This document shows, piece by piece, positions 11,631 through 38,183 of a stretch of 44,122 bases of DNA (its first letter is position 1; each line of letters starts with the position of its first letter). Location: contig CAZDAF010000001.1 of the NCBI GenBank assembly GCA_964503115.1, forward strand, positions 1-44,122. Reading direction: 5' to 3'. The stretch is from an uncultured bacterium (GTDB lineage: Bacteria > RBG-13-61-14 > CAYWKU01). Both the position numbers and the translations under genes were made by a program. The notes beneath the pieces are model-generated. The model had not been told where the DNA came from and made no database searches. It saw nothing but the letters and a program-made list of their open reading frames with translations.

Positions 11631-11659
11631 GCGGCGCAAATTACAAGCGCCGCTTTTTT
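11631..11659 (+). terminator. Rho-independent terminator after tRNA-Met
   Basis: A 7-bp GC stem GCGGCGC/GCGCCGC (11631-37 and 11647-53), a 9-nt loop, then TTTTTT (11654-59). The hairpin also abuts the stop codon of the convergent FGE-like gene. Confidence 0.6.
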
Positions 11660-12546: not shown

Positions 12547-12606
12547 GTCCTCCTCCCGTTTCAGCGTATCATATTTCCGCTTTACATTCAAATCCCTTCC
12601 TCGGGA

Positions 12607-19024: not shown

Positions 19025-19190
19025 GAACTTAAATTACCACAAACCGCCGCTGCCCAAAAGCGGCGTATAACCGGAAGACCTTCCGGGCAGGTCATAGGGA
19101 CATAACCCCGCCCTTGTAAAGTACGCATTCTCTGACTATGCTGAAAATTAGAGCTTTGTTTAAGTACCCTCGAAAAAGGAGGTCAATGCT

Positions 19191-19556
19191 ATGGAACTGG
19201 ACGTTTTTTCTTTTGTAAAGACGGTCACCAGGTACGGCTATGCGTTCGAGATGACTTTTAAGTTCAGGGGAGAGGTTGCTCCTTACGAGATTGAGTTCTT
19301 CGCCGGAGAACTGGACGCCGCCCTGAAAAGCAAGAAATGGCCCATCGCGCAGGTTTATAACTGGGATCTTGCGCGGGGTTTTCTCGTGCTGCCGATAGTC
19401 GACGTTAATGACGAAGGGATCAAAAAGCGCGCTACGGCGATGAAAGAACTAATAGACACGGCGCTGGCGAGAGCTAACGAGCGGATAGAAAAATTTGACA
19501 CGGAACTCAACCCCGTCATCGATGCATACAAGGAAATCTTTTCCGCACAGAGCTAA
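19191..19556 (+). CDS. Hypothetical 121-aa protein, no recognisable family
   Basis: A strong AAGGAGG lies 8 nt before the ATG. The composition looks like real coding sequence, with a predicted helical C-terminus. It sits directly upstream of paaK on the same strand. Confidence 0.55.
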   Translation: MELDVFSFVKTVTRYGYAFEMTFKFRGEVAPYEIEFFAGELDAALKSKKWPIAQVYNWDLARGFLVLPIVDVNDEGIKKRATAMKELIDTALARANERIEKFDTELNPVIDAYKEIFSAQS

Positions 19557-19643
19557 TCTTCATACACCGCAAGCCACGTTACGCCGGGGTAAAACGCCGC
19601 CTACCTTTTCAAAAGAGAGCTTTGATATTATTATTTAAGCGTC

Positions 19644-20927
19644 TTGATATGGAATAAAAAATACGAATGCATGTCGCGGGACGAGCTTGCGCAGTTGCAG
19701 CTTGAAAGGTTGCAGTCAACGCTCAGCCGGGTGTCGAAAAGCGTTGGATTCTACCGGAAAAAGTTTGCGGAAATGGAGGCGAACCCACAAGCGGTCACCT
19801 CGCTCGAAGACATCCGGTATTTTCCCTTCACGATAAAGGCCGACCTTCGAGACAATTACCCTTACGGCATGTTTGCCGTGCCGCTTCGGGACGTTGTGCG
19901 GATTCACTCGTCCAGCGGCACTACCGGCAAGCCCACTGTGGTGGGGTATACGCGGAACGATCTGGAGAACTGGTCGGACCTTTGCGCTAGATTTATCACC
20001 GCCGCCGGCGTCACCTCGGACGACATTGTGCAGGTAAGCTTCGGATACGGCTTGTTTACCGGCGGATTCGGACTGCATTACGGCGCGGAATTGACCGGAG
20101 CGAGCGTCATACCCGCCTCGAGCGGCAACAGCCGCCGCCAGACACTTATCATGCAGGATTACAAGACCACCGCGCTGGTTTGCACACCTTCTTATGCTTT
20201 GCACCTCGCGGACGTCATGGAAGATATGGGAATCAATCCCCAGTCGCTATCGCTCAGGTGGGGGCTGTTCGGCGCCGAGCCGTGGAGCGAGAAGATGAGA
20301 GCCCGCATACAGGAAAAACTGCCCATTACCGCTACTGACAATTACGGTCTGAGCGAGGTGATGGGCCCCGGCGTGGCAGGCGAATGCCTCGAGCAGAACG
20401 GCATGCATGTGCATGAGGACAACTTCCTCATCGAGATAGTCGATCCGGAAACGCTCGAACCGCTCCCGGAGGGCGAAACCGGGGAATTGGTTATCACCAC
20501 CCTGCATAAGGAAGCGCTCCCGCTCATAAGATACCGCACGCGCGACATCACCAGTATCGTTCCGGGCGAGTGCGCTTGCGAGCGAACGGGAAGACGGATA
20601 CGGAAAATTCAAGGCCGGTCGGACGATATGCTTATCATCCGCGGCGTGAACGTTTTCCCCAGTCAGATCGAGGAAGTGCTCTTCGAAATCGAGGGCACCG
20701 AGCCTCACTATATGCTTATTATCGACCGGAAAGACAACCTCGATTATCTCGAAGTGCACGTTGAGGTCGGCGATATGATTCCGCAGCAATCGAATATCGT
20801 CGCCCGGATTCGCAGCCGAATACAAAGCGTTTTGGGCATCGGTGTCGAGGTTAGACTGGTAGAACCGAAATCACTGGAGCGCTTCGATGACAAGGCCAAA
20901 AGGGTCATTGATAAAAGGGAATTTTAA
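19644..20927 (+). CDS. paaK: Phenylacetate-CoA ligase family (PaaK-type aryl/acyl-CoA ligase)
   Basis: The N-terminus [24 protein letters not shown], the AMP-binding motif SSGTTGKPT, then YGLSE, and a C-terminal [19 protein letters not shown] start at 19644. Confidence 0.9.
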
Positions 20928-20965
20928 ACTCGATACGAAAAAATTTTTTGAAAAGAGGTGTGTTC

Positions 20966-22093
20966 ATGGCGTCCGTAACGGTTGAAGAGGTCGGCGGCGG
21001 AAAAGATCGAAAGGATTTCTTGAATCTGCCCTGGAAGTTGTTTCACTATCGGAACGACATTAACTGGGTTTCGCCTCTCAAACTCGAAAATATGTACAGG
21101 ATGAGCAAGCGGTTCAACCCTTTTTTCAAAAACGCTCGGGTTAAATATTTCCTTGCTCGGCGCGACGGCCGGGTTGTGGGGCGCATCAGCGCGCACGAAA
21201 GCTACCGGTTTAACGAATTCCAGAAAACCAAGTGGGGCTTTTTCGGCTGGTTCGAAAGCGATGACGACCCGGAAGTGGCCGCAGCGCTGTTTGATAGCGC
21301 TGAGAAGCAGTTGAGAGAATGGGACATGGAAGCTTGCCTCGGGCCGTTCAATTTTACTACAAACGACGAATGCGGGCTGCTCATCGACGGATTCGACACC
21401 CCGCCCATGATAATGATGACGCACAATCCGCCCTATTATCAAAAACTCGTCGAAAATCTCGGCTACGAAAAGGCGCAAGACCTTTTCGCTTACCGGCTGG
21501 ACGCCACTCAACCCGTCCCCGAAGGAGTGGCCAAGATCGCCGATCGAGTACGTTCGAGGCCGGACGTTACTTTCCGCAGTTGGGACCTCAAGCGCAACCT
21601 GCGCCGCGAGATGGAATATTTCCTCGAAATATACAACGCTGCATGGAACCGCAACTGGGGTTTCGTGCCGCTCGATCGGGAGGAATTTTTCAGCCACGAG
21701 CTCGAATTCCGCTACCTGCTCGACGAAGAAGTGGCTTTCATGGCCGAAGTCGAGGGGAAACCCGCCGGATTCGCGCTATCGTTACCCAACCTCAACGAGC
21801 CTATCGCGCACATGAATGGCAGGGTTACGCCGTGGAGCATTATGCGCTTCATTAGGGAAAAAAAGAACATCCAGGGCCTTCGCGTTTTCGCCTTGGGGGT
21901 GAAGCCCGAATACCGCCGCGTCGGCATCGGGGCGGTTTTCTATGTCGATACCCTTGTTATAGCCAGGCGGCGTGGGTATAAATGGGGAGAAATGAGCTGG
22001 ATACTCGAAAGCAACGACGCAATGAATCGAGCCATCCGCACTATGGGCGGAAAAGTCTACAAAACGTACAGAATCTACAAGAAAGACTTATGA
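20966..22093 (+). CDS. Uncharacterised GNAT-fold N-acyltransferase-like protein (about 375 aa)
   Basis: The pattern DRKDFLNLPWKLF..D.NWVSPL...FNPFFK.A....FLARRDGRVVGRISA...FGWFES.DD and a C-terminal YRRVGIGAVFY (acyl-CoA binding-like) match a widespread, unstudied GNAT-annotated family as I recall it. AGAGG lies 6 nt before the ATG at 20966. Confidence 0.6.
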   Translation: MASVTVEEVGGGKDRKDFLNLPWKLFHYRNDINWVSPLKLENMYRMSKRFNPFFKNARVKYFLARRDGRVVGRISAHESYRFNEFQKTKWGFFGWFESDDDPEVAAALFDSAEKQLREWDMEACLGPFNFTTNDECGLLIDGFDTPPMIMMTHNPPYYQKLVENLGYEKAQDLFAYRLDATQPVPEGVAKIADRVRSRPDVTFRSWDLKRNLRREMEYFLEIYNAAWNRNWGFVPLDREEFFSHELEFRYLLDEEVAFMAEVEGKPAGFALSLPNLNEPIAHMNGRVTPWSIMRFIREKKNIQGLRVFALGVKPEYRRVGIGAVFYVDTLVIARRRGYKWGEMSWILESNDAMNRAIRTMGGKVYKTYRIYKKDL

Positions 22094-22304
22094 AGAAATA
22101 TTTAACACCACGGTTCTCGACGACAAATGAAGTCGGCGAAGCCGTGGATATTTAAGAAACGGTGCCGCTACGCGTTTGCAAATTTCTTCATTTCATGTTA
22201 GTTATAAGGCGTTTATTGTTTTTTTAAATTTTCGGCAAGTATTTTTTTTGAGTCTCAAGCTGTGCAAGTCACGATAATTTAGTGTGGCAATAAAGGGAAA
22301 TGGC

Positions 22305-22571
22305 ATGAAATATTGGAGGGCTCCTCTTGACTTGGGTACCATCCAGGCAACTAAGGGCAAGATAGTCATAGTCGAAGAGCGCTGCAAGGGGTGCGGATTT
22401 TGCGTCGAATATTGCCCGCGCGGCGTGTTGCGTATGTCCTCGTCTTTTAACGTAAAAGGGTACCATCCTCCCGAAGTGGTAGATGAGTCTCTTTGTGTGA
22501 ATTGTCATTTTTGTGAAGTTATCTGTCCGGAATTCGCAATTTTCTCGGTAGAGGCCACCGAGGCGGCTTAG
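22305..22571 (+). CDS. korD: 2-oxoacid:ferredoxin oxidoreductase delta subunit (2x[4Fe-4S] ferredoxin)
   Basis: Contains CKGCGFCVEYCP and CVNCHFCEVICP. AAGGGA lies 6 nt before the ATG at 22305. Substrate specificity (Kor, Vor, Por or Ior-like) cannot be read from the sequence. Confidence 0.8.
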   Translation: MKYWRAPLDLGTIQATKGKIVIVEERCKGCGFCVEYCPRGVLRMSSSFNVKGYHPPEVVDESLCVNCHFCEVICPEFAIFSVEATEAA

Positions 22572-22715
22572 ACGCCAAATTAAGATAACAATCTTTTCAT
22601 TACGGCCTTTCGCGAGGTTGCGGTTTAGTATAAAACTGCCGGGATCAAAGCATGATTCATCATTATTTGGCCCGGGAAACGAGACGATGAAACGACTGGA
22701 AACCGACTGAGGTAT

Positions 22716-23879
22716 ATGAAAGTGGCCGGTAAGACGGTATTGACGGGAACTCATTTCATGCACGGCGATCACGCATGTTGCGAGGGCGCCCTTGCGGCGG
22801 GATGCCTTTTCTTCGGCGGCTATCCTATAACGCCTGCGACCGAGGTTGCCGAGCGTATGTCGCGGCGACTGCCGGAAATAGGGGGCATTTACATCCAGAT
22901 GGAGGACGAGTTGGGCTCGATCGCCGCAGTGCTAGGCGCCAGTTGGGGCGGTACGAAGGCTATGACCAGCACTTCGGGGCCGGGATTTTCGCTCATGATG
23001 GAAAACATCGGCCTTGGCGTTTGCACCGAGACCCCGTGCGTTGTCTGCAACGTGCAACGAGCCGGGCCCAGTACGGGCCTGCCCACTCTGGCCGGCCAAG
23101 GGGATATGATGCAGGCTCGATGGGGGTCTCACGGACATTACGAGATAATCGCCCTTTCGCCATCAAGCCCGCAGGAGATGTTCGATTTCACCATCAGGGC
23201 TTTTAACTTAAGCGAGCAATTTCGTATTCCGGTCTTGATCATGTCCGACGAAGTGGTCGGTCACATGCTCGAACGCGTAGTGATCCCTCCCGAGAATGAG
23301 ATCGAACTCATCAAGCGCCGAAAACCGAAAGTATCTCCCGATCAGTACCTGCCATATAAGGCGGATCCCGACTGGATAGCGCCAATGGCCGACTTCGGAG
23401 ACGGGTATCGTATGCACATAACCGGCTTGACTCACGACGAAAGAGGCTACCCGGTCATGGACGCCACTACGCAGGAGAATATGATAACCAGACTGGTACG
23501 AAAAATTCGGGATAATACGGATAAAATAATCGATTACGACACTTTCGAACTCGACGACGCCGAAGTGGTCGTGGTAGCGTACGGCATCAGCGCGAGGTCT
23601 GCGAAGCGTGCGGTTCGCGATGCTCGACAAAAGGGTCTTCGTGCCGGCTTTATCAAGCTGAACACCGTCTGGCCTTTCCCTGAAGAGTTTATCCGCGACG
23701 TGGCCGGTAATGTACGGGCCATGCTCATGCCGGAGATCAATTACGGCCAGATGGTTCTCGAGCTCGAGCGTTGCGCTCAAGGCCGCTGCATGGTGCGGCT
23801 GGTGCAACATGCCGGTGGGGGCATCATCCCTCCCGGCTCCATCGTCGACGCCGTCGAGACCGCGCTAAAGGAGTCATAA
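22716..23879 (+). CDS. korA: 2-oxoacid:ferredoxin oxidoreductase alpha subunit
   Basis: Contains GYPITPATEV, TSGPGFSLM and the QRAGPSTGLPT motif typical of OFOR alpha subunits. About 387 aa. Confidence 0.9.
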   Translation: MKVAGKTVLTGTHFMHGDHACCEGALAAGCLFFGGYPITPATEVAERMSRRLPEIGGIYIQMEDELGSIAAVLGASWGGTKAMTSTSGPGFSLMMENIGLGVCTETPCVVCNVQRAGPSTGLPTLAGQGDMMQARWGSHGHYEIIALSPSSPQEMFDFTIRAFNLSEQFRIPVLIMSDEVVGHMLERVVIPPENEIELIKRRKPKVSPDQYLPYKADPDWIAPMADFGDGYRMHITGLTHDERGYPVMDATTQENMITRLVRKIRDNTDKIIDYDTFELDDAEVVVVAYGISARSAKRAVRDARQKGLRAGFIKLNTVWPFPEEFIRDVAGNVRAMLMPEINYGQMVLELERCAQGRCMVRLVQHAGGGIIPPGSIVDAVETALKES

Positions 23880-24772
23880 TGAGCGCCAGAAAAAGCAAAG
23901 CTATCACGCATCCTCAGGACGAACTGCTTCGTACCGACCGCATTCCGCACATATGGTGCTCCGGCTGCGGTATCGGGACGGTTTTCAGTTGCGTAATAGC
24001 GGCGATACAGAAATCCGGGTATCCGCTGGACGATGTGTCGATGATTTCCGGCATCGGCTGCACCGGGCGAATGGCGGGCTACATTAAGCTCGATTCGTTC
24101 CATACCACCCACGGCCGCGCTATTCCCTTTGCCACCGGGCTGAAGCTGGCTCGACCCGAAAGTCGCGTCTTGGTCGCATCGGGAGACGGCGACCTGTTGG
24201 CCATCGGCGGCAACCATCTTATACATGCCGCGCGGCGCAATATAGACATCACCGTCATCTGCGTCAATAACCTTAACTATGGCATGACCGGCGGACAGGT
24301 TGCCCCAAGCACGCCGTTCGGAGCGAAAACCGCCACCACACCTATCGGTTCACCTGAAGAACCTTTTAATTTTTGCGCGCTTGCCGCCGCTTGTGGAGCG
24401 GTATACGTTGCGCGCTGGACATCGTTGCATATTCGCAGGCTCACGGATTCGATTTCCGAGGCGATGCAAAAACGCGGATTCAGCTTCGTCGAAATACTTA
24501 CCCCCTGTCCCACATCGTTTGGCAGGCGCAACAAAATGCGAAATGCGCTCGACATCGTTAAATTTTACCACGAGCATTCGGTCATACGAAACGATATCGA
24601 CCCTAAAGAGGCAACTCTTGATTTCAGCAGAAACCTGGTAATGGGTAAGTTCGTGGATATTGAGCGGCCCACATTCCTGGATAATTACAGCCTGATAAAC
24701 AGGCGGGAACTTGGAGACTGGCCCAATCTGGAAGAAAAAGTCGCCGTGACCGGGAAAAGGATATCAAAGTAG
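23879..24772 (+). CDS. korB: 2-oxoacid:ferredoxin oxidoreductase beta subunit (TPP-binding)
   Basis: Contains WCSGCGIG, the GIGC cluster/TPP region, GDGD, and NNLNYGMTGGQ. The ATG overlaps the korA stop (TAATG). The track ORF starts earlier, at 23771, inside korA. Confidence 0.9.
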   Translation: MSARKSKAITHPQDELLRTDRIPHIWCSGCGIGTVFSCVIAAIQKSGYPLDDVSMISGIGCTGRMAGYIKLDSFHTTHGRAIPFATGLKLARPESRVLVASGDGDLLAIGGNHLIHAARRNIDITVICVNNLNYGMTGGQVAPSTPFGAKTATTPIGSPEEPFNFCALAAACGAVYVARWTSLHIRRLTDSISEAMQKRGFSFVEILTPCPTSFGRRNKMRNALDIVKFYHEHSVIRNDIDPKEATLDFSRNLVMGKFVDIERPTFLDNYSLINRRELGDWPNLEEKVAVTGKRISK

Positions 24773-24776
24773 AGCC

Positions 24777-25367
24777 ATGACGGATAAAACCGAAAAGGAA
24801 ATACTTATTACCGGCTTTGGCGGCCAGGGTATTATCCTCGCGGGGAATATCATGGGCAAAGCTGCGGCGCTATACGACAATAAACACGCCACCATGACCC
24901 AAGCCTATGGTCCCGAGGCTCGCGGGGGAGCTTGTTCGTCACAGGTTATGATAAGCGACGAGCAAATACTATATCCATACGTCGAGCGGCCACGGGTGCT
25001 GATCTGTATGAGCCAGGAAGGATATTCCAAAAATGTATCTTCACTGGATTCCGGCGGACTTCTAATTTGGGATACCGACCTCGTTCAAACCGATGATCCC
25101 GACCCGAGTTGGATTACCTGCCATATCCCGGCTACTCGTTTCGCAGAGGAGTTGGGCAACAAAATGATGGCCAACATTGTGATGCTGGGTTTTGTGTCTG
25201 CTGTGAGTGATCTGGTGAGTGTCGAGTCTTTTCGTAAAGCTGTCTTGGATTCCGTGCCACCTCACACAAAGGACAAAAACGTTGCGGCATTCGACCGGGG
25301 TCGCGAGTACGGTGAGGCTATCCTTAAAAGCCGGGCCAAGCAGGACGAAAACCGGCAGGAAGGATGA
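24777..25367 (+). CDS. korC: 2-oxoacid:ferredoxin oxidoreductase gamma subunit
   Basis: ILITGFGGQGIILAG and YGPEARGG are typical gamma-subunit motifs. Confidence 0.9.
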   Translation: MTDKTEKEILITGFGGQGIILAGNIMGKAAALYDNKHATMTQAYGPEARGGACSSQVMISDEQILYPYVERPRVLICMSQEGYSKNVSSLDSGGLLIWDTDLVQTDDPDPSWITCHIPATRFAEELGNKMMANIVMLGFVSAVSDLVSVESFRKAVLDSVPPHTKDKNVAAFDRGREYGEAILKSRAKQDENRQEG

Positions 25368-28300
25368 CGACCGCGGCGAAAATGGACGGCCCTGAAAAAG
25401 CCGTTTTGATAGTAGGGCCAGGCTACGGGGCGTTAAAAGTGGCCGAGGACCTTGCTCAGTCCGGCATCCCTGTGGTATGGGTGACACGAGCTCCTCACTT
25501 CCTCGAGTTGCCCGGTGGCATCGAGACCCTCGCGGAGTGGCCGGATGACCTTAATTTCCAGTTCAGGCCTCTATATCTCCGCGTGACCCGACATTCCCTG
25601 GTCACTCCCCTCACCCGGGCTCGAATAGAATCCATCGAGCGCATTCAAGACGACTATCGGGCCAATATAGTCCAGGATCCCATGTATGTGGATTACGACC
25701 TTTGCACCGGGTGCGGCCGGTGTATTGAAGTTTGCCCGCTCAACGAGTCCGAACAGCCTCCCCTGACGCGAACCCCCGCCTATTGCCCTTCGCGAGCCCT
25801 CGATCTTGACAAGCGTAAACTAAGCCGGTGTCGGGAGAGTTGCCCGCTGGGAGTTAACGTGCAGGCATATATGGCGCTGACGGCACAGGCGCGTTTTGAT
25901 GAAGCGCTTGCCGTGATAAAGGACGACAATCCTTTGCCCGGCGTTTGCGGCCGGGTTTGCCATCACCCTTGCGAGGAGTCGTGCCGCCGCGCCGAATTGG
26001 ATCAGGCGGTGGCCATACGGGACATCAAGCGTTTTTTGGCCGACCACGAAGCGCGCGGGCGGCAGCCCCGGCTCGATATTCCCGATAGTCCTCGCAGACC
26101 CGAACGTGTGGCGGTGATCGGCTCGGGGCCGGCGGGATTGACCGCCGCGCATTTCCTCAACCGGGCAGGTTTCCCGGTTACGATATTTGAGGCTATGCCT
26201 GAACCGGGGGGAATGCTGCGAGCCGGGATCAATGCATTCCGCCTCCCCAGACCGGTGTTGGATGCGGAAATAAAAGCCATTGTGGACGCTGGAGTCGAGA
26301 TATGCACCGACGTGATGGTAAGTTCCATTGATAACCTTTTTAGTGAAGGATTTCGGGCGGTGCTCCTTTGCACCGGCGCCCATCGCGATCTTCGCCTGAA
26401 TATACCGGGTGAGGATGCCGAGGGAATATTCGGCGCGGTTGAAATGCTAAAAGATTTCAACATTCGACAAAAAGTAAAGATTGGGGAAGACGTCGCCGTT
26501 ATAGGCGGCGGTAATTCCGCCGTGGACACCGCCCGGACCGCTATAAGGTTAGGGGCCCGGACAGTTACCATTTATTACCGCCGAAAGCACGAGGATATGC
26601 CGGCGGAGGAATTTGAAATCACGGCGGCCCAAGAAGAAGGAGTTCAAATCGAGTACTTGACGGCACCGGTTCGCGTGATTGTCGAGGAGGGAAAAGTTAC
26701 GGGACTCGATCTCACGCGCATGCGCCTGGGAGAAATCGACTCAAGCGGGCGCGGTCGACCGGAACCGATAGAAGGTTCGGAGTTCTCAGTAAAGGCGAAC
26801 ACGGTGATTGTCGCCATTAGTCAAGAACCCGACCTGGAGGAGACCGGTTTAGGTGGTGAGTTCGAGAAGGGCCGTGGCGGAAGGGTTATAGTGGATGAGC
26901 GCTGTTCCACATCCCGCAAGGGGGTTTTCGCAGCGGGCGATGTGGTTACCGGCCCTTCTACCGTAATCGGTTCAATGGCCGATGGCCGGATGGCGGCCGG
27001 GCGTGCAATAGAATATCTCACTGGCGAGCCGTCGGCATTCGTCAAGCTGTCGGCTGAGTCCCGTGGAGTCGGGGATTATCTGGATATTTCGGAGGATACC
27101 CCTCGCCAATGGCGCCCTGAGATGGCGCAACGGCAACCGAAAGTACGGTGCCGCGACTTCGAGGAAGTGAGTTTCGGACTCACCGCCGAGCAGGCGGTTG
27201 CCGAAGCACAACGTTGTATTCAATGCGGTTTGTGTTGTGAGTGTCGAGTTTGCGAGACCGCTTGTGCCGAAATAGGGGCAATCGACCACTTTCGGCCCAC
27301 CCGAAGTATTGAGGTTTTAAGCCCCGGCATAGTCGTCGCCGACGCCGATGAGATGCCCCAAAAAAACGATCTCGGAGATGAGCGGATTTACCGGTTAGGC
27401 GACTTCCAGCACACAACAGATCTCATGAATGTGATGGTAGCCGGCAGTGCTGCCGCCGGTCAGGTCATGGCCCATGCGGCGGTGCTTAGGACGGAGGTTG
27501 TTCCCGAGGAACCCAAGCCGCCGGAAATATCTGAGGAGTTGCGACTGGGAGTTTTCGTCTGCACCTGTAACGGAACCATGGCGCCTTCCGGAGCGCTCGA
27601 GCGTATCCGCGAATTGGTCGCCGACGTGCCGGGGGTTGAACACTGCGAGTTAATTTTCTCGGCCTGCCACCCTCGAGGTTCCGACCAGATAGCGCGCGCC
27701 GTGAAGGAACACCGGCTGACACGGGTCATTATGGCCTCATGTATATGCTGTCCGCTCGATTTTCATTGTATATCATGCAACGATCAGAGGACCCGCGCCA
27801 AAAAGCATCTTTTCGACCGGTTGGGCCTTTCAAGAAGCGATTTCGATATGATCAACATCAAGGATCATCTCCATCCCGAAGGAAAATCAGAGGACGAAAT
27901 TGTGGAGCGAGCTCGCTATCTCCTGCGCGGGGCTTTCATACGGGCCCGTTTCCTGGGCCCATTGCGACAGGGAACCACGGAAATCGGGAGTCGTATTCTC
28001 ATTCTGGGCGGATCGGAAGTGGGTATCAGTTGCGCCCTCAACCTGGACAACCAGGGGTTTCGCGTGCGGCTGGTTCATCGCTGCCGAATTAAGGATGGCC
28101 CCGAACCGCCCAAGTCGGTCTTGAAAAGACCGGTTGACCTGACTCAAGGCCGATCCATCACTCACGTCGAGGAGGCCGTGATCGAGGAAATCCGCGGAAA
28201 TGTGGGTGATTTCACGGTAATACTGGGCGAGGAAGGGCCGCAGCACAGATGGAGGGCCGACATCATTTGCCTGACCGACGAGCACTTGCTGCCCCTGGCC

Positions 28301-28735
28301 GTTCACGAGCATATGATGGGTCTTAAGAAGCTTTACCGTTACGACTTCGCTTTCTTCCATACTCCCCAGTTGGGTTTGTACCGGGTGATGCCCAGGACTT
28401 TGAAAAGAGTGACCGCTTTCGAGGCCGGCGCCGCCCTGGCCGCGCAGGTGGCCAGAGCTACGGCAGAGGCATTTATGAAAGATCACGAACTGAGCCCCCG
28501 GGTGGATCCTGAGCTATGCCGCGGATGCGGGCGCTGCGCCGATATATGCCTGTTCGACGCCATTAAGATGGTCGCTGATGCTCAGGGCGTTTTTACAGCT
28601 GAAGTATTGCGCTATAACTGCGTCGGATGCGGAGGATGCGTGGGCCGTTGTCCTGTAACGGCCTTGAATATGCCGTATTTCTCCAACCAGTTGGCAGAAG
28701 AAATAATGGTGGGCACTCTCGCTGGAGAGCGTTGA
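25364..28735 (+). CDS. Giant HdrA-like flavoprotein with an inserted GltD/NfnB-like NAD(P)H module (HdrL-type), 1123 aa
   Basis: The N-terminus has an HdrA-like dinucleotide fold (VLIVGPGYGALKVAEDL) and CTGCGRCIEVCP. About aa 150-550 are GltD-like: CPLGVNVQAY..., GRVCHHPCEESC, VAVIGSGPAGLTAA, VAVIGGGNSAVD and VFAAGDVVTGP. Then come CIQCGLCCECRVC, an HdrA-type segment LGVFVCTCNG...ASCICCP...INIKDH, a second Rossmann-like motif ILILGGSEVG, and a C-terminal 2x[4Fe-4S] pair (CRGCGRCADIC and CVGCGGCVGRCP). Its start overlaps the korC stop (ATGA). Confidence 0.8.
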   Translation: MTTAAKMDGPEKAVLIVGPGYGALKVAEDLAQSGIPVVWVTRAPHFLELPGGIETLAEWPDDLNFQFRPLYLRVTRHSLVTPLTRARIESIERIQDDYRANIVQDPMYVDYDLCTGCGRCIEVCPLNESEQPPLTRTPAYCPSRALDLDKRKLSRCRESCPLGVNVQAYMALTAQARFDEALAVIKDDNPLPGVCGRVCHHPCEESCRRAELDQAVAIRDIKRFLADHEARGRQPRLDIPDSPRRPERVAVIGSGPAGLTAAHFLNRAGFPVTIFEAMPEPGGMLRAGINAFRLPRPVLDAEIKAIVDAGVEICTDVMVSSIDNLFSEGFRAVLLCTGAHRDLRLNIPGEDAEGIFGAVEMLKDFNIRQKVKIGEDVAVIGGGNSAVDTARTAIRLGARTVTIYYRRKHEDMPAEEFEITAAQEEGVQIEYLTAPVRVIVEEGKVTGLDLTRMRLGEIDSSGRGRPEPIEGSEFSVKANTVIVAISQEPDLEETGLGGEFEKGRGGRVIVDERCSTSRKGVFAAGDVVTGPSTVIGSMADGRMAAGRAIEYLTGEPSAFVKLSAESRGVGDYLDISEDTPRQWRPEMAQRQPKVRCRDFEEVSFGLTAEQAVAEAQRCIQCGLCCECRVCETACAEIGAIDHFRPTRSIEVLSPGIVVADADEMPQKNDLGDERIYRLGDFQHTTDLMNVMVAGSAAAGQVMAHAAVLRTEVVPEEPKPPEISEELRLGVFVCTCNGTMAPSGALERIRELVADVPGVEHCELIFSACHPRGSDQIARAVKEHRLTRVIMASCICCPLDFHCISCNDQRTRAKKHLFDRLGLSRSDFDMINIKDHLHPEGKSEDEIVERARYLLRGAFIRARFLGPLRQGTTEIGSRILILGGSEVGISCALNLDNQGFRVRLVHRCRIKDGPEPPKSVLKRPVDLTQGRSITHVEEAVIEEIRGNVGDFTVILGEEGPQHRWRADIICLTDEHLLPLAVHEHMMGLKKLYRYDFAFFHTPQLGLYRVMPRTLKRVTAFEAGAALAAQVARATAEAFMKDHELSPRVDPELCRGCGRCADICLFDAIKMVADAQGVFTAEVLRYNCVGCGGCVGRCPVTALNMPYFSNQLAEEIMVGTLAGER

Positions 28736-28736
28736 C

Positions 28737-29159
28737 ATGGAAAAGATCAATTTACTGGGAATCTGCTGTAACTGGAGTCCTTACGCATGCTACAATGCCG
28801 CGGGAATGGCCAAGATGAAGATGCCGCCGAACTTCCGGCTGATACGTGTGATGTGTATTGGCCGGATTAACCAGGCCATGATCCTGAGGGCCTTCGAGTT
28901 TGGGGCGGACGGTGTGATACTTCTCGAATGCAAAGACGAGGACTGCCGCTACGGGCCCGGGCCGGAAGTCGGTCATGTCAACGTACAGCGGGTGCGGGAG
29001 ATTCTGCGTCTTCTCGGCATCGGTCAGAAGCGGTTGGTGGAGCGCAGCTTTTCCGCACACGAAAAAGAGGAGTTGGTCAAGGCGCTTTGGGATTTTGCCG
29101 AACTCATCGAGTCCATGGGGCCGAACCCGGCCAAACCCCGCCAGGAACGGGTGGTGTAA
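28737..29159 (+). CDS. mvhD: MvhD/FlpD-type hydrogenase iron-sulfur subunit (methyl-viologen-reducing hydrogenase delta-like)
   Basis: The MvhD signature is LLGICCNWSPYACYNAAGMAKMKMPPNFRLIRVMCIGRIN...GADGVILLECKDEDCRY. It starts 1 nt after the hdrL-like stop. Confidence 0.85.
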   Translation: MEKINLLGICCNWSPYACYNAAGMAKMKMPPNFRLIRVMCIGRINQAMILRAFEFGADGVILLECKDEDCRYGPGPEVGHVNVQRVREILRLLGIGQKRLVERSFSAHEKEELVKALWDFAELIESMGPNPAKPRQERVV

Positions 29160-30352
29160 TGCCTCTCGACGATCCCAGGATCGATCGGATAATACGGGAG
29201 TATTCGCTGTACCAGTGTCTCGAGTGCGGCAAGTGTTCGGCATCCTGCCCGCGCCTGCTTGCCGGGAAAGAGTACTCTCCCCGGCTTTTGGCTCACAAGC
29301 TCATCGCCGAACGGGAGGACGAGGCATTTATCGAAAACTCCGTGTGGGAGTGTCTTACTTGCGGCCTTTGCGAGGAGCGTTGCCCTTCGGGGGTCGAGTT
29401 CAGTCGTTTTATTCTCGAGATGCGCGCCTTGCTGGCCGAATCCAAGGGGCTTAAGGGATACCGTGCCCACGATGGGGCCTTGCACTCATGGATGAGGATG
29501 ATGACCTCGCCCGACCTCGAGCAAAACCGCCTGGACTGGGTGGACCCGGAACTTCGGGTGGCGTCTGAAGGCCCCATAGCTTTTTTCACCGGCTGTGCGC
29601 CGTATTTTGACGTGTTTTTTTCCGGTATCGAGGTGGATACTCTCTCCATTGTGCGGGATAGTATAAAGTTGCTCAATTTCCTGGATATCGAACCGGTTCT
29701 TTTAAAGGATGAACGCTGTTGCGGACACGACCTGTTATGGACGGGAGATATCGAGAACTTCGAGATACTTTGCAAACTGAATTACAACGAGTTTAAAGCC
29801 GCAGGCGTCGAAGAACTGGTGGTTTCGTGTCCCGAAGGTTTCCATGTGTTGAGTGAGCACATGCCGAAGGTGATTCCCGGTTTCGACATCAAGGTGACAT
29901 TACTTATCGACTTGCTCGAGCGCGAGATACGTAAAGGCGGTAAGGCTTTCCAGCCGTTTAAGCGAAGAGTTACCTACCAGGATCCGTGCCGTTTGGGACG
30001 CATGTCCGGCAGATACGATGGACCACGGGCGTTGCTTTCGATGGTTCCCGATTTGAAGTTACGTGAGATGGAAAACTCGGGCCGAAGCGCCATATGCTGC
30101 GGCAACAGCGGCTTTATCAATTGCGACGCCTATTCGAAGCGAATACAAGTACAAAGGCTGCGTGAGGCGAAAGCCACCGGCGCGGACCTTCTCGTTACGG
30201 CATGTCCTAAATGCATGATCCACCTGACATGCGCCATGTCGGATCCCAACAAGCGCGGGTCATTGAAAATGGAGATTCGAGATCTTGTGAGCGTACTGGC
30301 CGATCATATCGAATATTCCGAGGGAGAAGAATTTATAAAAGGCAGGAAATAA
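29159..30352 (+). CDS. HdrC/HdrB fusion (HdrD/GlpC-like): 2x[4Fe-4S] domain plus two CCG domains
   Basis: Ferredoxin motifs CLECGKCSASCP and CLTCGLCEERCP. The CCG domains contain ERCCGHD and AICCGNSG...TACPKCMIHL. The ATG overlaps the mvhD stop (TAATG). The track ORF start at 28928 lies inside mvhD and is rejected. Confidence 0.85.
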   Translation: MPLDDPRIDRIIREYSLYQCLECGKCSASCPRLLAGKEYSPRLLAHKLIAEREDEAFIENSVWECLTCGLCEERCPSGVEFSRFILEMRALLAESKGLKGYRAHDGALHSWMRMMTSPDLEQNRLDWVDPELRVASEGPIAFFTGCAPYFDVFFSGIEVDTLSIVRDSIKLLNFLDIEPVLLKDERCCGHDLLWTGDIENFEILCKLNYNEFKAAGVEELVVSCPEGFHVLSEHMPKVIPGFDIKVTLLIDLLEREIRKGGKAFQPFKRRVTYQDPCRLGRMSGRYDGPRALLSMVPDLKLREMENSGRSAICCGNSGFINCDAYSKRIQVQRLREAKATGADLLVTACPKCMIHLTCAMSDPNKRGSLKMEIRDLVSVLADHIEYSEGEEFIKGRK

Positions 30353-30435
30353 GGCCTTTAAAAAACTAAAGGGCAAAGTAAATTTCCGCCCGAGTTTTGT
30401 TTTTAAATTCGCTCTCCTGCGAATTTCTTATTATG

Positions 30436-30444
30436 TGCTATAAT
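30436..30444 (+). promoter_or_regulatory. Candidate extended -10 promoter element (TGcTATAAT) for the small-ORF/glgC operon
   Basis: A perfect TGnTATAAT lies about 75 nt upstream of the ATG at 30518, after a weak hairpin that follows the hdrCB stop. There is no good -35 element. Confidence 0.35.
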
Positions 30445-30517
30445 ATAAGCGGTTGGGAGGACGGCTGTCCGCCTCGTCATAAATATATAAACGGCTTTTC
30501 GACGAAAGGGGATAGAA

Positions 30518-30760
30518 ATGCCGTGCGTTTACTTCCGGCCCGTTACGGACCCTAAGCGCAAGGCTACCACAGGCGTAGTCGGTTATTGCGCGGGTTATTC
30601 CGAGCAAAAATTGCGAATACCCAGCCTGGCGGAATATCAAAAACACTGCTCGACGAACGAACAAACCGGCTGTTCCGTTTTTAATTTCCGCACCAAGCGG
30701 AAATTGCCCGACGTTACGGTTAAAACCGTCCCTGAACCGAAAGTCGAAACAGTTGAATGA
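30518..30760 (+). CDS. Small 80-aa cysteine-containing hypothetical protein
   Basis: AGGGGA lies about 6 nt before the ATG. There are four Cys residues (C3, C24, C44, C52), a basic patch and a Lys/Pro/Val/Glu-rich tail. No family is recognised. Confidence 0.5.
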   Translation: MPCVYFRPVTDPKRKATTGVVGYCAGYSEQKLRIPSLAEYQKHCSTNEQTGCSVFNFRTKRKLPDVTVKTVPEPKVETVE

Positions 30761-30781
30761 CCGAGGAAAACTGGAAATTCG

Positions 30782-32011
30782 ATGAGAATCCTATCCGTTA
30801 TATTGGCCGGAGGTGAAGGGAAGCGCCTGTATCCTCTAACCCGTGACAGGGCGAAGCCTGCCGTACCTTTCGGCGGCAGATACCGGATAGTGGATTTCGT
30901 ACTTTCCAACATGGTCAACTCCGGCTTTATACGCATCAAGGTATTAACTCAATTCAAATCGCATTCACTGAACAATCACATCACCCGTTACTGGTCGTTG
31001 GCGCCAACGCACGACCTTTTCATCGAGCTTGTTCCGGCGCAGATGCGAGTCGGGCCATGGTGGTACAAGGGTAGCGCCGACGCAATATATCAGAGCCTGG
31101 ACATCATCACCGCCGAAAACCCCGACTACGTCTGCGTATTCGGTGCAGACCACGTGTACCGCATGGATTTGAGACAGATGCTCGATTTCCACATGGAGCG
31201 GGAAGCCGAGCTTACCGTTGCGGCGATACCGGTGCCCGCCAAGAAGGCTTTGGGGTTCGGAATAACCGAGGTGGATCGAGAGGGAAGGATGGTCGGTTTC
31301 GAGGAAAAACCCGCCAAACCTAACGAAATACCCAATCGCTCCGGTTGGGCCCTGGCCAGCATGGGCAACTACATTTTCAACACCGATGCGCTGGTCAAGG
31401 AAATAGTGAGAGACGCCGAAGATGAATCAAGCGCTCACGACTTCGGCCGCAACATTATAACCTCGATGTTCGAGCGATATCCGGTATATGTCTACGACTT
31501 CAGTACGAACGTGATACCCGGCGACACCGACCGGGAGCACGGCTATTGGAAGGACGTCGGCGATATCGATACTTACTGGAAGGCTCACATGGACCTGGTC
31601 AGTGTCACTCCGACGTTCAACCTTTACAATTACAAGTGGCCCATCGGGACCGGTTATCTACACTTGCCGCCGGCGAAGTTCGTATTCGCGAACGAGAAGA
31701 AGCGCCGGGTGGGCATAGCTACGGATTCGATGGTCAGCGAAGGTTGCATCATCAGCGGCGGGCACATCAACCGAACCGTACTCGGCCCGAAAGTGCGCAT
31801 AAACAGCTTCGTTCATGTTACGGACAGTGTTCTTATGGAAGATGTGGAAATAGGGAGATACGCTCAGATAAGAAAAGCGGTGATAGATAAACACGCCTAT
31901 ATCGCCCCGGGCGTCAAGATAGGATACGATCTTGAACATGACCGGAAGCGTTTCACCGTAACTCCCGGCGGCGTAGCGGTGATACCGCGCAAGAGCGTGG
32001 TGGAGAAATAA
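30782..32011 (+). CDS. glgC: Glucose-1-phosphate adenylyltransferase
   Basis: Contains [44 protein letters not shown], and a C-terminal left-handed beta-helix region. Confidence 0.9.
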
Positions 32012-32063
32012 CTCTGTCGACTTCCTCCGGGCGGCCGGATTTTCGGAGAGGTTATATTCAATT

Positions 32064-34307
32064 ATGAGCAAGTTACGGCTGGTTTTGTTATGGCATATGC
32101 ATCAGCCTTTTTATACGGATCCGTGGTCCGGGGTTATATCCATGCCATGGGTGCGCCTACACGCCTCGAAGTCCTATAACGACATGGCTGTGGCTATCGA
32201 GCGGCGCCCGGTGAAGGTGGTTGTAAACTTTTCGCCCTCCCTCCTCCTTCAACTCCACCGGCTTGCCGGCGGCGCGACCGATATATTTTTTGACATCGCC
32301 GCAAAACCCACGGACGCCTTATCCGAACAGGATCGAGCTTTTATACTTGATAACTTCTTCGCCGCAAATTCCGAAACCATGATAAAACCCCACGCCCGAT
32401 ATCTTGCCCTGTGGGAGAAAAGGCGCAGCGAAGGATGGCATCCCGGAGTGGAGTGCCATGACGACTACACTACCAACGAACTGCGCGATCTTATCGTATG
32501 GTTTCATCTCGCATGGACAGGATGGGCGGCGCGCGAGGAATACAAGGAAATCGAGGAAATCGAGAAGCGCGGGTGGGATTTCTCCGAAGCGGACAAGGAA
32601 ACCGTGCTGAATGTCGGTCTCGATATTGTTCAAAACCTGTTCGGCAGGTGGAAGGCGCTTTCGCAATCCGGCAAGGTCGAACTTACGACAACTCCGTTTG
32701 CGCATCCCATACTGCCGCTCCTGATCGACACCGAAACGGCACGCCGATGCATGCCGGGGACGAAGCTGCCCGAACCTTTCCGATTTCCCGAGGATGCTCG
32801 AGAACATGTCCTTCTGGCGCGTGAGGTGTATCGAGAGGTGTTTGGGATTTATCCGAACGGAATGTGGCCCAGCGAGGGTTCCGTATCGCCGGAGATAATT
32901 CCCATTTTGAAGGAAGCCGGGTTCCAGTGGCTTGCGACCGACGAGGGCATCCTGCAAAGGACGTTTGGCATCGAGCATCTTAACCGGCGGCATTTTCACC
33001 CCTACCTGGCGACGTATCGTGGAGCGGAAGTGTCGGTTTTTTTCCGTGACCGCAACTTAAGCGACCTCGTGGGTTTCGATTACAGCAAGCTTCCCGAAAA
33101 GGATGCCGCCACCGATATGCTCAACCGCCTTCACAATTCGGCCTCCGCAACCGCCGCGTGGGAAGATCCGGCAGTTGTCACAATTGCGCTGGACGGCGAA
33201 AACCCATGGGAACATTACAAGCAAGGTGGGGAGGAGTTCCTCGATACACTATACAGCGGCTTGGCCGAAGCGGCGGACATCGAAACAGTGCTGCCGGCCG
33301 AATGGTTGCGCGATCATCCTCCTCGTAACACCATTGATAACCTATATTCAGGGTCGTGGATAAGATCCGACTACAGCATTTGGATTGGCAATCAGGAGGA
33401 AAACGACGCTTGGAATGCTTTGCTGGCAACCCGGCGGGATTATGAGGATATGATAGATACATTCCCGGATATGCCGGACATTGAGAATACCGGGCTTTTG
33501 GGCTTTTTCGCCGGATTGCCGGCGTATATAGGGCCATCTATGGCAAGATCGGAGCTGTTCGCGGCTGAGGGGAGCGATTGGTTCTGGTGGTTTGGAGATG
33601 ATTTCACTTCCGACAACGACGAGGAATTCGACCGCGTATTCAGGTCGCATCTGACTAATGTTTATCGCTTCCTGGGGCATGCTCCTCCGGAAAAGCTTGC
33701 GGAGCCTATTCTCCAGCCTCATCCCGTCCGGCCGGACTATGAGCCCGTGGGATTCCTTCATCCTACCATCGATGGAAAGGTTACGGAGTATTACGAGTGG
33801 AACGACGGCGGTATGTATACCGTTCGGGCCGTTGGCGGCACTATGTACACCCGGGAGATATACCTCGAGCGGATATATTACGGCTTTGACGCGCACCGAT
33901 GGTTCCTTCGGCTCGACCGCCGCGAAAAGGCATGGAAAGTCGAGGAAGGCGCCGCCGGCGACGATTCGCCCCTGCCCGATTGCGTTATTATCGAAGGGCT
34001 TGTCGGGGAAGAAAAATCCTTTCGCATAGAAGTTCCAGCGCACCCCGCTCCCGTTTTGCCTTGCCGCCTTTATCTGCCCGACAGAGAGCACCCGGAACTG
34101 ATATCACCCCTGGCAAAGGCCGCCGCATACAGCTGCATGGAAATGTTGATTCCATTCAGAGTTCTCGATCTCGAACCCGGAATGGAACTTAAATTCGCAA
34201 TCCTGCTCGAGCGGTTCGGGAGGGAGCTTGATCGGTATCCTTCGGCGGGATTTCTCCGCTTCGAGGTACCCGACGCGGATTTTGAGAGGAGAATGTGGAG
34301 CGCTTAA
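32064..34307 (+). CDS. GH57-family glycoside hydrolase, long (about 750 aa) form of unassigned specificity
   Basis: GH57 region I is LLWHMHQPFY. The nucleophile region is MWPSEGSVS, and the acid/base region is ALDGENPWEH. GSDWFWWFGDD is also present. Confidence 0.85.
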   Translation: MSKLRLVLLWHMHQPFYTDPWSGVISMPWVRLHASKSYNDMAVAIERRPVKVVVNFSPSLLLQLHRLAGGATDIFFDIAAKPTDALSEQDRAFILDNFFAANSETMIKPHARYLALWEKRRSEGWHPGVECHDDYTTNELRDLIVWFHLAWTGWAAREEYKEIEEIEKRGWDFSEADKETVLNVGLDIVQNLFGRWKALSQSGKVELTTTPFAHPILPLLIDTETARRCMPGTKLPEPFRFPEDAREHVLLAREVYREVFGIYPNGMWPSEGSVSPEIIPILKEAGFQWLATDEGILQRTFGIEHLNRRHFHPYLATYRGAEVSVFFRDRNLSDLVGFDYSKLPEKDAATDMLNRLHNSASATAAWEDPAVVTIALDGENPWEHYKQGGEEFLDTLYSGLAEAADIETVLPAEWLRDHPPRNTIDNLYSGSWIRSDYSIWIGNQEENDAWNALLATRRDYEDMIDTFPDMPDIENTGLLGFFAGLPAYIGPSMARSELFAAEGSDWFWWFGDDFTSDNDEEFDRVFRSHLTNVYRFLGHAPPEKLAEPILQPHPVRPDYEPVGFLHPTIDGKVTEYYEWNDGGMYTVRAVGGTMYTREIYLERIYYGFDAHRWFLRLDRREKAWKVEEGAAGDDSPLPDCVIIEGLVGEEKSFRIEVPAHPAPVLPCRLYLPDREHPELISPLAKAAAYSCMEMLIPFRVLDLEPGMELKFAILLERFGRELDRYPSAGFLRFEVPDADFERRMWSA

Positions 34308-36406: not shown

Positions 36407-36412
36407 TCGCTC

Positions 36413-38152: not shown

Positions 38153-38183
38153 GACTATTCATGTTGCATGGAGGCGAGGAAAT

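Follow-up and report, generated by a model that had tools for sequence, protein, structure and literature searches.

A widespread gene cluster joining a four-subunit 2-oxoacid:ferredoxin oxidoreductase to an HdrL-type flavoprotein, and its proposed role in electron bifurcation

Heterodisulfide reductase (Hdr)-like proteins have been described in several arrangements that resemble the gene cluster reported here. In class II benzoyl-CoA reductase of Geobacter metallireducens, Bam[(BC)2DEFGHI]2, the BamE subunit is 'a fused HdrA dimer' with 'extensive domain permutation' and only one thioredoxin reductase-like (TrxR) unit that holds the bifurcating FAD; from BamE, low-potential electrons pass to a hard-wired catalytic module, and those of high potential leave through the HdrD-like BamD, which reduces electron-transferring flavoprotein (ETF) (bioRxiv 10.64898/2026.04.10.717634). 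HdrL was defined in Desulfobacterium autotrophicum as a large fusion of HdrA and glutamate synthase, followed by mvhD (PMC2702500), and HdrA9-11 of ANME-1 archaea carry an NfnB-like insertion of ~500 residues in the HdrA ferredoxin domain (PMC9012536). In Thioflavicoccus mobilis, as in tubeworm symbionts (Endoriftia), hdrA and hdrBC flank korABCD, and flxABCD accompanies them; co-expression has been shown, and direct bifurcation of electrons to 2-oxoglutarate:ferredoxin oxidoreductase (OGOR) has been proposed for the tubeworm symbionts (PMC6315080, PMC11636981). A seven-gene cluster of Syntrophobacter fumaroxidans, 'HdrAL/POR (Sfum_0012-0018)', has been listed as an Hdr-like system with a 2-oxoacid:ferredoxin oxidoreductase (OFOR), with no mechanism proposed (PMC5947623). 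Here we describe a seven-gene cluster, korD-korA-korB-korC-hdrL-mvhD-hdrD, on a 44,122-nucleotide stretch of contig CAZDAF010000001.1 (assembly GCA_964503115.1; hereafter the window) from an uncultured bacterium of the GTDB lineage RBG-13-61-14; CAYWKU01. Judged by gene count and description, Sfum_0012-0018 is very probably a cluster of the same type. An earlier reading of the window from its letters (the sequence-only reading) knew of no characterised OFOR–Hdr supercomplex; our full-text literature searches likewise returned no biochemical study of an OFOR–Hdr complex of this type, but the association of the genes had already been noticed (PMC5947623; PMC6315080, PMC11636981).

The cluster consists of seven co-directional open reading frames (ORFs) at 22305-30352 on the + strand. 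Profile searches against Pfam and NCBIfam, on which domain assignment of the window proteins is based, gave all seven the content claimed in the sequence-only reading:

22305-22571, + strand: korD, delta subunit of the OFOR, 88 aa, a ferredoxin with two [4Fe-4S] clusters (Fer4 families)
22716-23879, + strand: korA, alpha subunit of the OFOR, 387 aa (POR_N and PFOR_II)
23879-24772, + strand: korB, beta subunit of the OFOR, 297 aa, with sites for thiamine pyrophosphate (TPP) and [4Fe-4S] (TPP_enzyme_C, PF02775)
24777-25367, + strand: korC, gamma subunit of the OFOR, 196 aa (PF01558, POR)
25364-28735, + strand: hdrL, multi-domain Fe-S flavoprotein, 1123 aa (Pfam, NCBIfam, HdrA/Nfn structure alignments)
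28737-29159, + strand: mvhD, MvhD/FlpD-type [2Fe-2S] adaptor, 140 aa (PF02662, 123 bits vs. a cut-off of 22)
29159-30352, + strand: hdrD, an HdrCB fusion of 397 aa with two cubane motifs and two CCG domains (CCG, Fer4_8)

The genes are tightly packed, and the overlapping or nearly overlapping junctions reported earlier were confirmed exactly. The korA stop and korB start share TAATG (1-nt overlap), with an AAGGAG site upstream of the korB ATG; korB and korC are 4 nt apart; korC and hdrL share ATGA (4-nt overlap); hdrL and mvhD are 1 nt apart; and mvhD and hdrD share TAATG. The 144 nt between korD and korA form the sole real spacer of the cluster, and no promoter-like or terminator-like site on the + strand was detected at the korC/hdrL junction in a promoter/terminator scan.

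This gene set is widespread. Searching one genome for each species with an HdrL alignment yielded 76 loci (cited below by their handles where needed), which span at least five named phyla or candidate phyla. About 21 belong to Syntrophales/Syntrophaceae and about 13 to Desulfarculales, including the cultured Desulfocarbo indianensis SCBM and strain Dcd-1; the remainder derive from other Thermodesulfobacteriota/'Deltaproteobacteria', Actinomycetota (Gaiellales, Thermoleophilia), Spirochaetota, Poribacteria, and Adiutricales, and HdrL protein matches were also obtained from Candidatus Abyssubacteria. The order korD-A-B-C-hdrL-mvhD-hdrD is identical in every sufficiently flanked locus (tblastn, with agreement from the gene calls of the source databases), the exceptions being fragmented matches on three contigs (L076, L077, L079). 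At the five junctions other than korD/korA, the median distance from a stop codon to the next gene is 2-8 nt (66-69 loci), while the korD-korA spacing differs among relatives, from overlapping genes up to ~140 nt. Flanking genes vary from locus to locus, so the conserved unit is the cluster itself. Pairwise protein distances are strongly correlated between the two halves of the cluster (KorA-HdrL r = 0.87, compared with r = 0.80 for KorA-KorB), which indicates that the cluster has been inherited as one unit.

HdrL has more than 4500 homologues, the best 120 of which share 60-70% identity with it and are of equal length. In an exhaustive search with the HdrL-specific C-terminal half, the Kor-linked HdrL family forms one cluster at 50% identity. 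Distant full-length relatives, with 28-35% identity over that half, have an OFOR upstream and FlpD and CCG genes downstream in four of four cases, and we therefore regard the OFOR-HdrL association as old rather than a local accident. Thus, the co-occurrence survey suggested in the sequence-only reading shows a linkage conserved far outside this genome, the seven genes stand as a single conserved unit, and a functional link between the OFOR and the Hdr-like module is well founded on the conserved order, the distant layouts, and the co-varying distances.

In subunit sizes (delta 88, alpha 387, beta 297, and gamma 196 aa) and order, KorDABC agrees with the four-subunit KGOR/Oor type, and we assign it as a four-subunit KGOR-type 2-oxoacid:ferredoxin oxidoreductase; the alpha, beta (TPP, [4Fe-4S]), gamma, and delta features expected of this type are all present. 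KorD contains two CxxCxxCxxxCP motifs, with all eight cysteines invariant among 68 homologues, and KorB contains the GDG...NN motif for TPP as well as Cys27, Cys30, Cys61, and Cys210, invariant among 67 homologues. KorA matches PF01855 (229 bits) and PF17147 (71 bits), and passes the model for '2-oxoacid:acceptor oxidoreductase subunit alpha' (NF006412; 577 bits, cut-off 411). The top NCBIfam matches of KorD (OGOR_delta and OorD) and of KorC (NF006323; 207 bits vs. 235) lie under their cut-offs. OGOR-specific models are next best, also under their cut-offs (alpha 388 vs. 579, beta 263 vs. 364, and delta 62 vs. 125 bits). Among proteins of known structure, KorA ranks the Pyrococcus furiosus enzyme 1yd7 highest (421 bits), followed by OGOR 8ys5 (286 bits), OGOR 6n2n, StOFOR, pyruvate:ferredoxin oxidoreductase, and oxalate oxidoreductase. 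From these family scores, 2-oxoglutarate/succinyl-CoA is most likely the couple of KorDABC. Two other assignments were rejected: indolepyruvate OFOR, for which KorA reaches 73 bits, far below the cut-off of that model, and phenylglyoxylate (Pad) OFOR, for which KorA, KorB, and KorC reach 52-69 bits (KorA 69) compared with cut-offs of 300-700.

The large subunit HdrL comprises the following segments:

25364-25783, + strand: residues 1-140, a Rossmann start (GPGYGA), a beta-meander, and the first half of a split ferredoxin domain (C114-C124)
25784-27211, + strand: residues 141-616, an NfnB/GltD-like module with two [4Fe-4S] clusters, FAD, and an NAD(P)H site (PF14691, PF07992)
27212-27523, + strand: residues 617-720, which complete the split ferredoxin domain (C618-C634) and end the first TrxR-like unit (YRLGDF)
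27524-28081, + strand: residues 721-906, an HdrA N-terminal Cys-cluster domain and a degenerate second Rossmann start (GGSEVG)
28496-28693, + strand: residues 1045-1110, a C-terminal ferredoxin domain with two [4Fe-4S] clusters (Fer4_7, Fer4_21)

The NfnB-like module of HdrL is intact: it retains the two cluster motifs and two Rossmann motifs, the second of which is followed by a YRR stretch aligned with the corresponding residues of NfnB; we take this stretch to bind the 2'-phosphate of NADPH, that is, to indicate a preference for NADPH. Residues 141-616 score 360 bits against the large subunit of NfnABC (9bov_A), with further strong matches to StnC (8oh5_C) and NfnB (4ylf_B); across NfnB, NfnABC, and Stn chains, the scores are 274-360 bits and the alignments span the whole module. 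The top Foldseek matches of the HdrL model are likewise Nfn and Stn proteins, at 37-41% identity (E = 1e-36 to 1e-45).

When the NfnB-like module is taken out, three HdrA-matching pieces remain, out of order (residues 69-124 plus 618-660; 720-906; 1016-1110). The first piece matches the beta-meander and inserted ferredoxin domain of HdrA: the 1-140 region aligns to HdrA residues 209-260 (and HdrL 12-142 to residues 153-286 of bacterial HdrA2), and residues 617-720 align to HdrA residues ~300-337 after excision of the insertion. From these piecewise alignments, the inserted ferredoxin domain (C114-C124, C618-C634) is split by the NfnB-like module. The second piece, residues 720-906, corresponds to residues 2-182 of HdrA in five Hdr complexes of known structure, which cover its N-terminal cluster domain and where its FAD domain starts, and the third, residues 1016-1110, to the C-terminal ferredoxin domain of HdrA (residues 557-643), with all eight cysteines invariant. 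HdrL thus carries all three HdrA Fe-S domains (N-terminal Cys-cluster, inserted, and C-terminal ferredoxin) in a changed order. The flavin-binding parts depart further from HdrA. The first TrxR-like unit has GPGYGA and YRLGDF, which make FAD binding by this unit plausible, but NFQFRPLYL replaces the DCSxC/U-ILxPKM motif of HdrA. The second has GGSEVG, degenerate yet invariant in the family (G882, G883, S884, and G887), and is without a GD motif. HdrL therefore contains two partial units and no single complete TrxR-like FAD domain with both GxGxxG and DCSxC/U-ILxPKM. It also fails the curated HdrA models (172 bits vs. a cut-off of 1100 for HdrA2, and 98 bits vs. 1300-1400 for HdrA). In our reading of the alignments, HdrL is a rearranged double-HdrA scaffold, made of two partial copies, with an NfnB-like module inside a ferredoxin domain. 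The sequence-only reading, which had described an HdrA-type flavoprotein with a GltD-like input, was right about the NfnB/GltD-like NAD(P)H module; the remainder is not a plain HdrA, being a rearranged double scaffold without the Cys/Sec motif.

The two small Hdr-like subunits have well-preserved cofactor ligands across the family, as do KorD, KorB, and the ferredoxin domains of HdrL. In MvhD, Cys11, Cys18, Cys40, Cys65, and Cys70 are kept in 70-71 of 71 homologues. In HdrD, the HdrC-type CxxCxxCxxxCP motifs (Cys20-30 and Cys65-75) are invariant among 61 sequences, and the 5+5 cysteines of the two CCG motifs are complete in 59 of the 61. The window HdrD has a complete second CCG motif, while the first retains four of five cysteines, the last being replaced by Gly227 (GGT, 29837-29839); glycine at this position is otherwise found in L024 only. 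A cluster ligand may really have been lost here, as in the Cys-to-Ser change of BamD; an error in the sequence would also account for the codon. The closest structural match to HdrD is the CCG part of 9ojn_A (a 1042-aa 'iron-sulfur-binding reductase'), followed by HdrC, and HdrD has no membrane helix or hydrophobic segment (maximum 19-residue hydropathy 1.2). Gene fusions of mvhD and hdrD in three separate lineages (L003, L082, and L086) support contact between MvhD and HdrD. The conserved neighbours of related loci include no gene for a thiol cofactor or carrier. A Cys-rich ORF of 80 codons (four Cys) at 30518-30760 on the + strand was rejected as a thiol carrier; it has no Pfam match, is conserved in no locus, and is probably not a gene.

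In most relatives, the cluster has an eighth gene. Among the 67 loci with enough downstream sequence, searched by tblastn, 65 have a gene of ~810 codons directly 3' of hdrD (e.g., L001:15247-17685, L002:15001-17418, and L039:14023-16413), in which an in-frame TGA encodes the selenocysteine of the motif TxPTMDCSI-U-ILGPKM. Translated with Cys at this position, the product passes the HdrA2 model (1209 bits vs. 1100) and is therefore identified as a canonical HdrA fused to MvhD. The distant HdrL families also carry this gene, and it is missing only from the window and from the Abyssubacteria locus L003. No HdrA2 remnant was found 3' of hdrD in the window, even at E = 10, and the gene is present in L088, where HdrL is 67% identical to that of the window and where several neighbouring genes (COesterase, FGE-sulfatase, PMT_2, T2SSE) resemble those of the window. 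The parts list given in the sequence-only reading is therefore complete for this window, but represents a minority seven-gene form of what is usually an eight-gene cluster. The HdrA2-type subunit of most relatives probably adds a second, canonical HdrA flavin; the window version would run without HdrA2 or use a copy encoded elsewhere.

We infer, at about an even chance of being right, that the seven genes encode one soluble complex in which KorDABC exchanges electrons with a flavin-bifurcating HdrL core. This reading is based on conservation of the seven genes as a unit, on cofactor sites that are intact, and on close architectural likeness to class II benzoyl-CoA reductase; the likeness extends to the methanogen Hdr-Fwd assemblies among the PDB matches. 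In the proposed scheme, KorDABC would be the low-potential arm, with electrons passing via KorD and the ferredoxin-like domains of HdrL rather than via free ferredoxin; the bifurcating core would be HdrL, in which two partial HdrA units make up a scaffold resembling BamE; NAD(P)H (probably NADPH) would enter at the NfnB-like FAD module of HdrL; and MvhD ([2Fe-2S]) and HdrD (two cubane clusters and CCG-domain clusters) would form the high-potential branch to an acceptor A. The reversible net reaction would be 2 NAD(P)H + acyl-CoA (most likely succinyl-CoA) + CO2 + A(ox) <-> 2 NAD(P)+ + 2-oxoacid (most likely 2-oxoglutarate) + CoA + A(red). Acceptor A may be a disulfide or a protein such as ETF. 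The sequence-only reading had taken it to be a disulfide; this is not required, since BamD passes its electron to ETF, but stays plausible given the intact 5+5 CCG cysteines of the family. We have a weak preference for the reductive direction, that is, for reductive carboxylation driven by the low-potential electron that bifurcation would yield, because hard-wired bifurcation drives difficult reductions and because a Syntrophus relative has been inferred to make 2-oxoglutarate reductively from succinate. A bolder version, which we consider rather doubtful, is a ferredoxin-independent, NADPH-driven 2-oxoglutarate (2-oxoacid) synthase in which the NfnB-type flavin and, in most genomes, the HdrA-type flavin would be coupled bifurcation sites feeding the OFOR directly.

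Several observations weigh against a single bifurcating complex. The bifurcating flavin is not assignable: the HdrA-like parts of HdrL are without the Cys/Sec motif and one Rossmann motif is degenerate. The AlphaFold2 model of HdrL is moderate (mean predicted local distance difference test score 68.7, predicted template modelling score 0.49) and poor in the Fe-S domains, and Foldseek recovered the NfnB-like part only. NfnA, with its [2Fe-2S] cluster and second FAD, is the partner that forms the high-potential branch in Nfn, and an NfnA-type protein is absent from the window cluster and from the conserved neighbours. OFORs with a delta subunit normally use free ferredoxin, and the absence of any Kor-Hdr subunit fusion in 66-69 loci leaves direct docking of the OFOR unproven. 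The substrate is assigned from family scores, with the OGOR-specific models under their cut-offs. Because the window lacks the HdrA2 gene and one CCG cysteine, its copy of the cluster may be atypical or impaired. A proteome study of S. fumaroxidans that named a cluster of this type did not detect it (PMC5947623).

The degenerate look of the HdrA-like parts, beside an NfnB-like module with an NAD(P)H site that is the best-preserved part of HdrL, would also suit a non-bifurcating NAD(P)+-linked 2-oxoacid dehydrogenase, in which the NfnB/GltD-like part hands OFOR electrons to NAD(P)+, and MvhD and HdrD act as a thiol redox switch or a minor side branch. An OFOR paired with a GltD-like protein is the core of the cluster, and such enzymes have precedents in PadH of phenylglyoxylate:NAD+ oxidoreductase (PadEFGHI) and in the NADP+-dependent KGOR of Azoarcus; the lack of HdrA2 and the weakened CCG motif in the window are in keeping with it. 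We nevertheless hold such an enzyme to be unlikely. Every locus encodes MvhD and HdrD, whose cluster ligands are invariant, and nearly all encode HdrA2, which would be odd for accessories; passing electrons at ~-500 mV to NAD(P)+ would be wasteful, and unusual for the energy-limited syntrophs that dominate the distribution; and the Kor subunits score poorly against the Pad models. The missing Kor-Hdr fusions, for their part, would be expected if KorDABC, with its ordinary two-cluster delta subunit, were co-transcribed with a separate Nfn- or Flx-Hdr-like complex of HdrL, MvhD, and HdrD (with HdrA2 where present) that joins ferredoxin, NAD(P)H, and a high-potential acceptor, the two enzymes being coupled by diffusible ferredoxin. 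Free ferredoxin is, to our knowledge, what known four-subunit OFORs use, and co-inheritance is evidence of shared function, not of contact. This arrangement too seems improbable to us, because the gene order and the overlapping korC/hdrL junction are kept at ~30% identity, the conserved unit (with the conserved neighbours of related loci) includes no ferredoxin gene, and in the analogues of known structure that have such a scaffold (Hdr-Fwd and class II benzoyl-CoA reductase) the low-potential output is hard-wired.

The genes just upstream of the cluster might suggest a different substrate. At 19671-22093 on the + strand are a PaaK-family aryl-CoA ligase (543 bits vs. a cut-off of 646 for TIGR02155), and a 375-aa protein with a weak GNAT domain, and in one distant locus (L083) the genes upstream include a GNAT gene and one for an ADP-forming acyl-CoA synthetase; the cluster might on this basis be an aryl- or acyl-2-oxoacid synthase fed by PaaK, in which phenylacetyl-CoA or a similar CoA ester is reductively carboxylated. 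Reductive carboxylation of an acyl-CoA, with PaaK encoded nearby, had been suggested for the window. We consider this very improbable, and the earlier suggestion finds no support: by tblastn, neither paaK nor the GNAT gene, nor the downstream glgC, has a match near the cluster in any of 80 related loci, a 211-nt AT-rich gap precedes korD, and KorA scores poorly against the indolepyruvate and phenylglyoxylate models but well against the general Kor-type alpha model. The reading of one soluble, OFOR-linked bifurcating complex thus remains the one that we prefer.

The non-coding segments of the cluster are as follows:

22094-22304, + strand: AT-rich intergenic region upstream of korD, 211 nt after the GNAT gene
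22572-22715, + strand: korD-korA spacer, 144 nt
30362-30426, + strand: two hairpins 3' of hdrD, the second followed by a U-rich run (promoter/terminator scan and fold)

The first of these is probably the operon start. It contains, by eye, TTGAGT-19 nt-GATAAT, which the consensus promoter scan did not accept, and counts of promoter and terminator sites over 19000-31000 are not above those of shuffled sequence. The hairpins probably mark the operon end, but can be called terminator-like only, since their fold is not significantly better than that of shuffles (z = -1.8); a 430-nt gap separates this region from glgC. We rejected the idea that the korD-korA spacer or the region before it holds a regulatory RNA or attenuator, as there is no Rfam match and the fold of the spacer is not significant (z = -1.6); the tail after hdrD has no Rfam match either.

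Elsewhere in the window, a glycogen/alpha-glucan gene set follows at 30782-39188 (+), with a glgC-like nucleotidyltransferase, three GH57 proteins (one amylase/4-alpha-glucanotransferase-like and one branching-enzyme-like), and a GalT/HIT-family protein. What looks like a corrinoid-dependent methyltransferase system is encoded at 41310-43823 (+); it comprises a URO-D/MtaA-like methyltransferase, a corrinoid protein that binds B12, and a third protein bearing a methionine-synthase activation domain. The region 13827-19024 (-) encodes an 891-aa fusion of a B12-binding radical SAM domain with GT4-type glycosyltransferase domains, an unusual combination, which overlaps by 4 nt with an 841-aa PMT_2-like membrane protein. 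A carboxylesterase, a GH88 protein, and an FGE-sulfatase-modifying enzyme (2646-6598 and 11659-12591) suggest a degrader of sulfated polysaccharides. There is a tRNA-Met (CAT) at 11554-11627, and a second tRNA at 44069-44122 is cut by the window end. Among the related loci, a Syntrophaceae metagenome-assembled genome has a second four-subunit OFOR (gamma-delta-alpha-beta) directly upstream of korD (L004:3702-6730, on the same contig as L026), and L086 has a second korD-korA-korB set downstream. In nine Syntrophales loci (L012, L013, L014, L016, L023, L058, L062, L064, and L078), a divergent aldehyde dehydrogenase gene adjoins korD on the opposite strand; its product is lactaldehyde/succinate-semialdehyde-like, below cut-offs. 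A major facilitator superfamily transporter and a nitroreductase-like gene lie downstream in those loci, and this synteny is lineage-specific.

Bacterial Hdr-like complexes are very common in anaerobes, but few have a known partner reaction or acceptor; here, an OFOR is always adjacent, across dozens of lineages. If the wiring is direct, NAD(P)H (~-320 mV) would drive reductive carboxylation (~-500 mV) without free reduced ferredoxin, or, in reverse, 2-oxoacid oxidation would lift high-potential electrons to NAD(P)H. Such wiring would matter for how syntrophs and complete-oxidising sulfate reducers assimilate carbon and keep their redox balance, as well as for the modular evolution of bifurcating enzymes, given that HdrL joins NfnB-type and HdrA-type parts. 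If the bolder NADPH-driven synthase were true, it would join Hdr-Fwd and class II benzoyl-CoA reductase as a third hard-wired 'redox booster', the first to serve CO2 fixation with formation of a C-C bond, and would explain how energy-limited anaerobes, Syntrophales and Desulfarculales among them, can produce 2-oxoacids in the absence of a strong ferredoxin reductant. The hypothesis is directly testable because some hosts are in culture (Desulfocarbo indianensis, S. fumaroxidans). The seven-gene form of the window, which does without HdrA2, may be a naturally occurring minimal variant that lends itself to reconstitution.

Compared with known systems, the cluster combines parts that are otherwise found apart. 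PadEFGHI consists of a four-subunit-type OFOR with a GltD-like NAD-binding flavoprotein, and, unlike the window cluster, is without MvhD, HdrD, or HdrA parts. With the methanogen HdrABC-MvhAGD and Hdr-Fwd/Fmd complexes (5odc, 7bkb, 8rvu, 9sw6), the cluster shares the HdrA Fe-S domains, the MvhD adaptor, and the HdrC/HdrB-type clusters, and with Hdr-Fwd/Fmd it would have in common the idea of channelling low-potential electrons straight into a CO2-reducing enzyme. It differs from the methanogen complexes in the changed domain order of HdrL, the missing Cys/Sec motif, and the lack of a hydrogenase or formate dehydrogenase; we know of no CoM-S-S-CoB metabolism in these bacteria. HdrL residues 141-616 are an NfnB-type module like those of NfnAB, NfnABC, and StnABC (4ylf, 5jca, 9bov, 9n5u, 8oh5), but, unlike in Nfn and Stn, there is no NfnA-type partner in the cluster and the module sits inside an HdrA-type ferredoxin domain. 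The position of this insertion is, by the published description, the same as in HdrA9-11 of ANME-1, which are archaeal and belong to Hdr clusters of methane metabolism, with no OFOR described beside them (PMC9012536). The window HdrL fits the definition of D. autotrophicum HdrL, being an HdrA/GltD-like fusion with an NAD(P)H site and with mvhD 1 nt downstream, whereas the HdrL loci of that organism have been described beside dsr, fdh, and other genes and the window hdrL lies beside an OFOR (PMC2702500).

The gene cluster of Endoriftia and T. mobilis for the reductive tricarboxylic acid cycle is alike, by its description, in placing a four-subunit OGOR inside an Hdr-type operon; it differs in having flxABCD, separate hdrA, hdrB, and hdrC, and tfrAB, in autotrophic Gammaproteobacteria, where the cluster described here has a single HdrL and a fused HdrD. 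Membership of the FlxABCD-HdrABC group was rejected for the window cluster, which has no flxA, flxB, or flxC and no separate hdrA, hdrB, or hdrC gene. Class II benzoyl-CoA reductase shares a permuted double-HdrA subunit (the likeness of HdrL to BamE being drawn from the published description), an MvhD-type adaptor (BamF), and an HdrBC/HdrD-like subunit (BamD). Its output module is the tungsten enzyme BamBC rather than an OFOR, and its NAD(P)H input is BamGHI rather than an NfnB-like insertion. BamF is long, with a winged helix-turn-helix (HTH) and selenocysteine, whereas the window MvhD has 140 aa, Cys, and no HTH; and most BamD homologues have a disrupted distal cluster, whereas the HdrD family keeps both CCG motifs intact. 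A BamF-like protein of 257 aa (FlpD plus HTH) was seen only in the distant locus L085, in a BamDEF-like row (4098-15331) of two FrhB/FdhB-like genes, a CCG protein, a 1016-aa double-HdrA protein (a distant HdrL relative), the FlpD-HTH protein, a 1011-aa double-HdrA protein, and FlpD. Among known modular bifurcating enzymes, the korDABC-hdrL-mvhD-hdrD cluster is thus a widespread, uncharacterised variant, of which the window holds an unusual minimal form.

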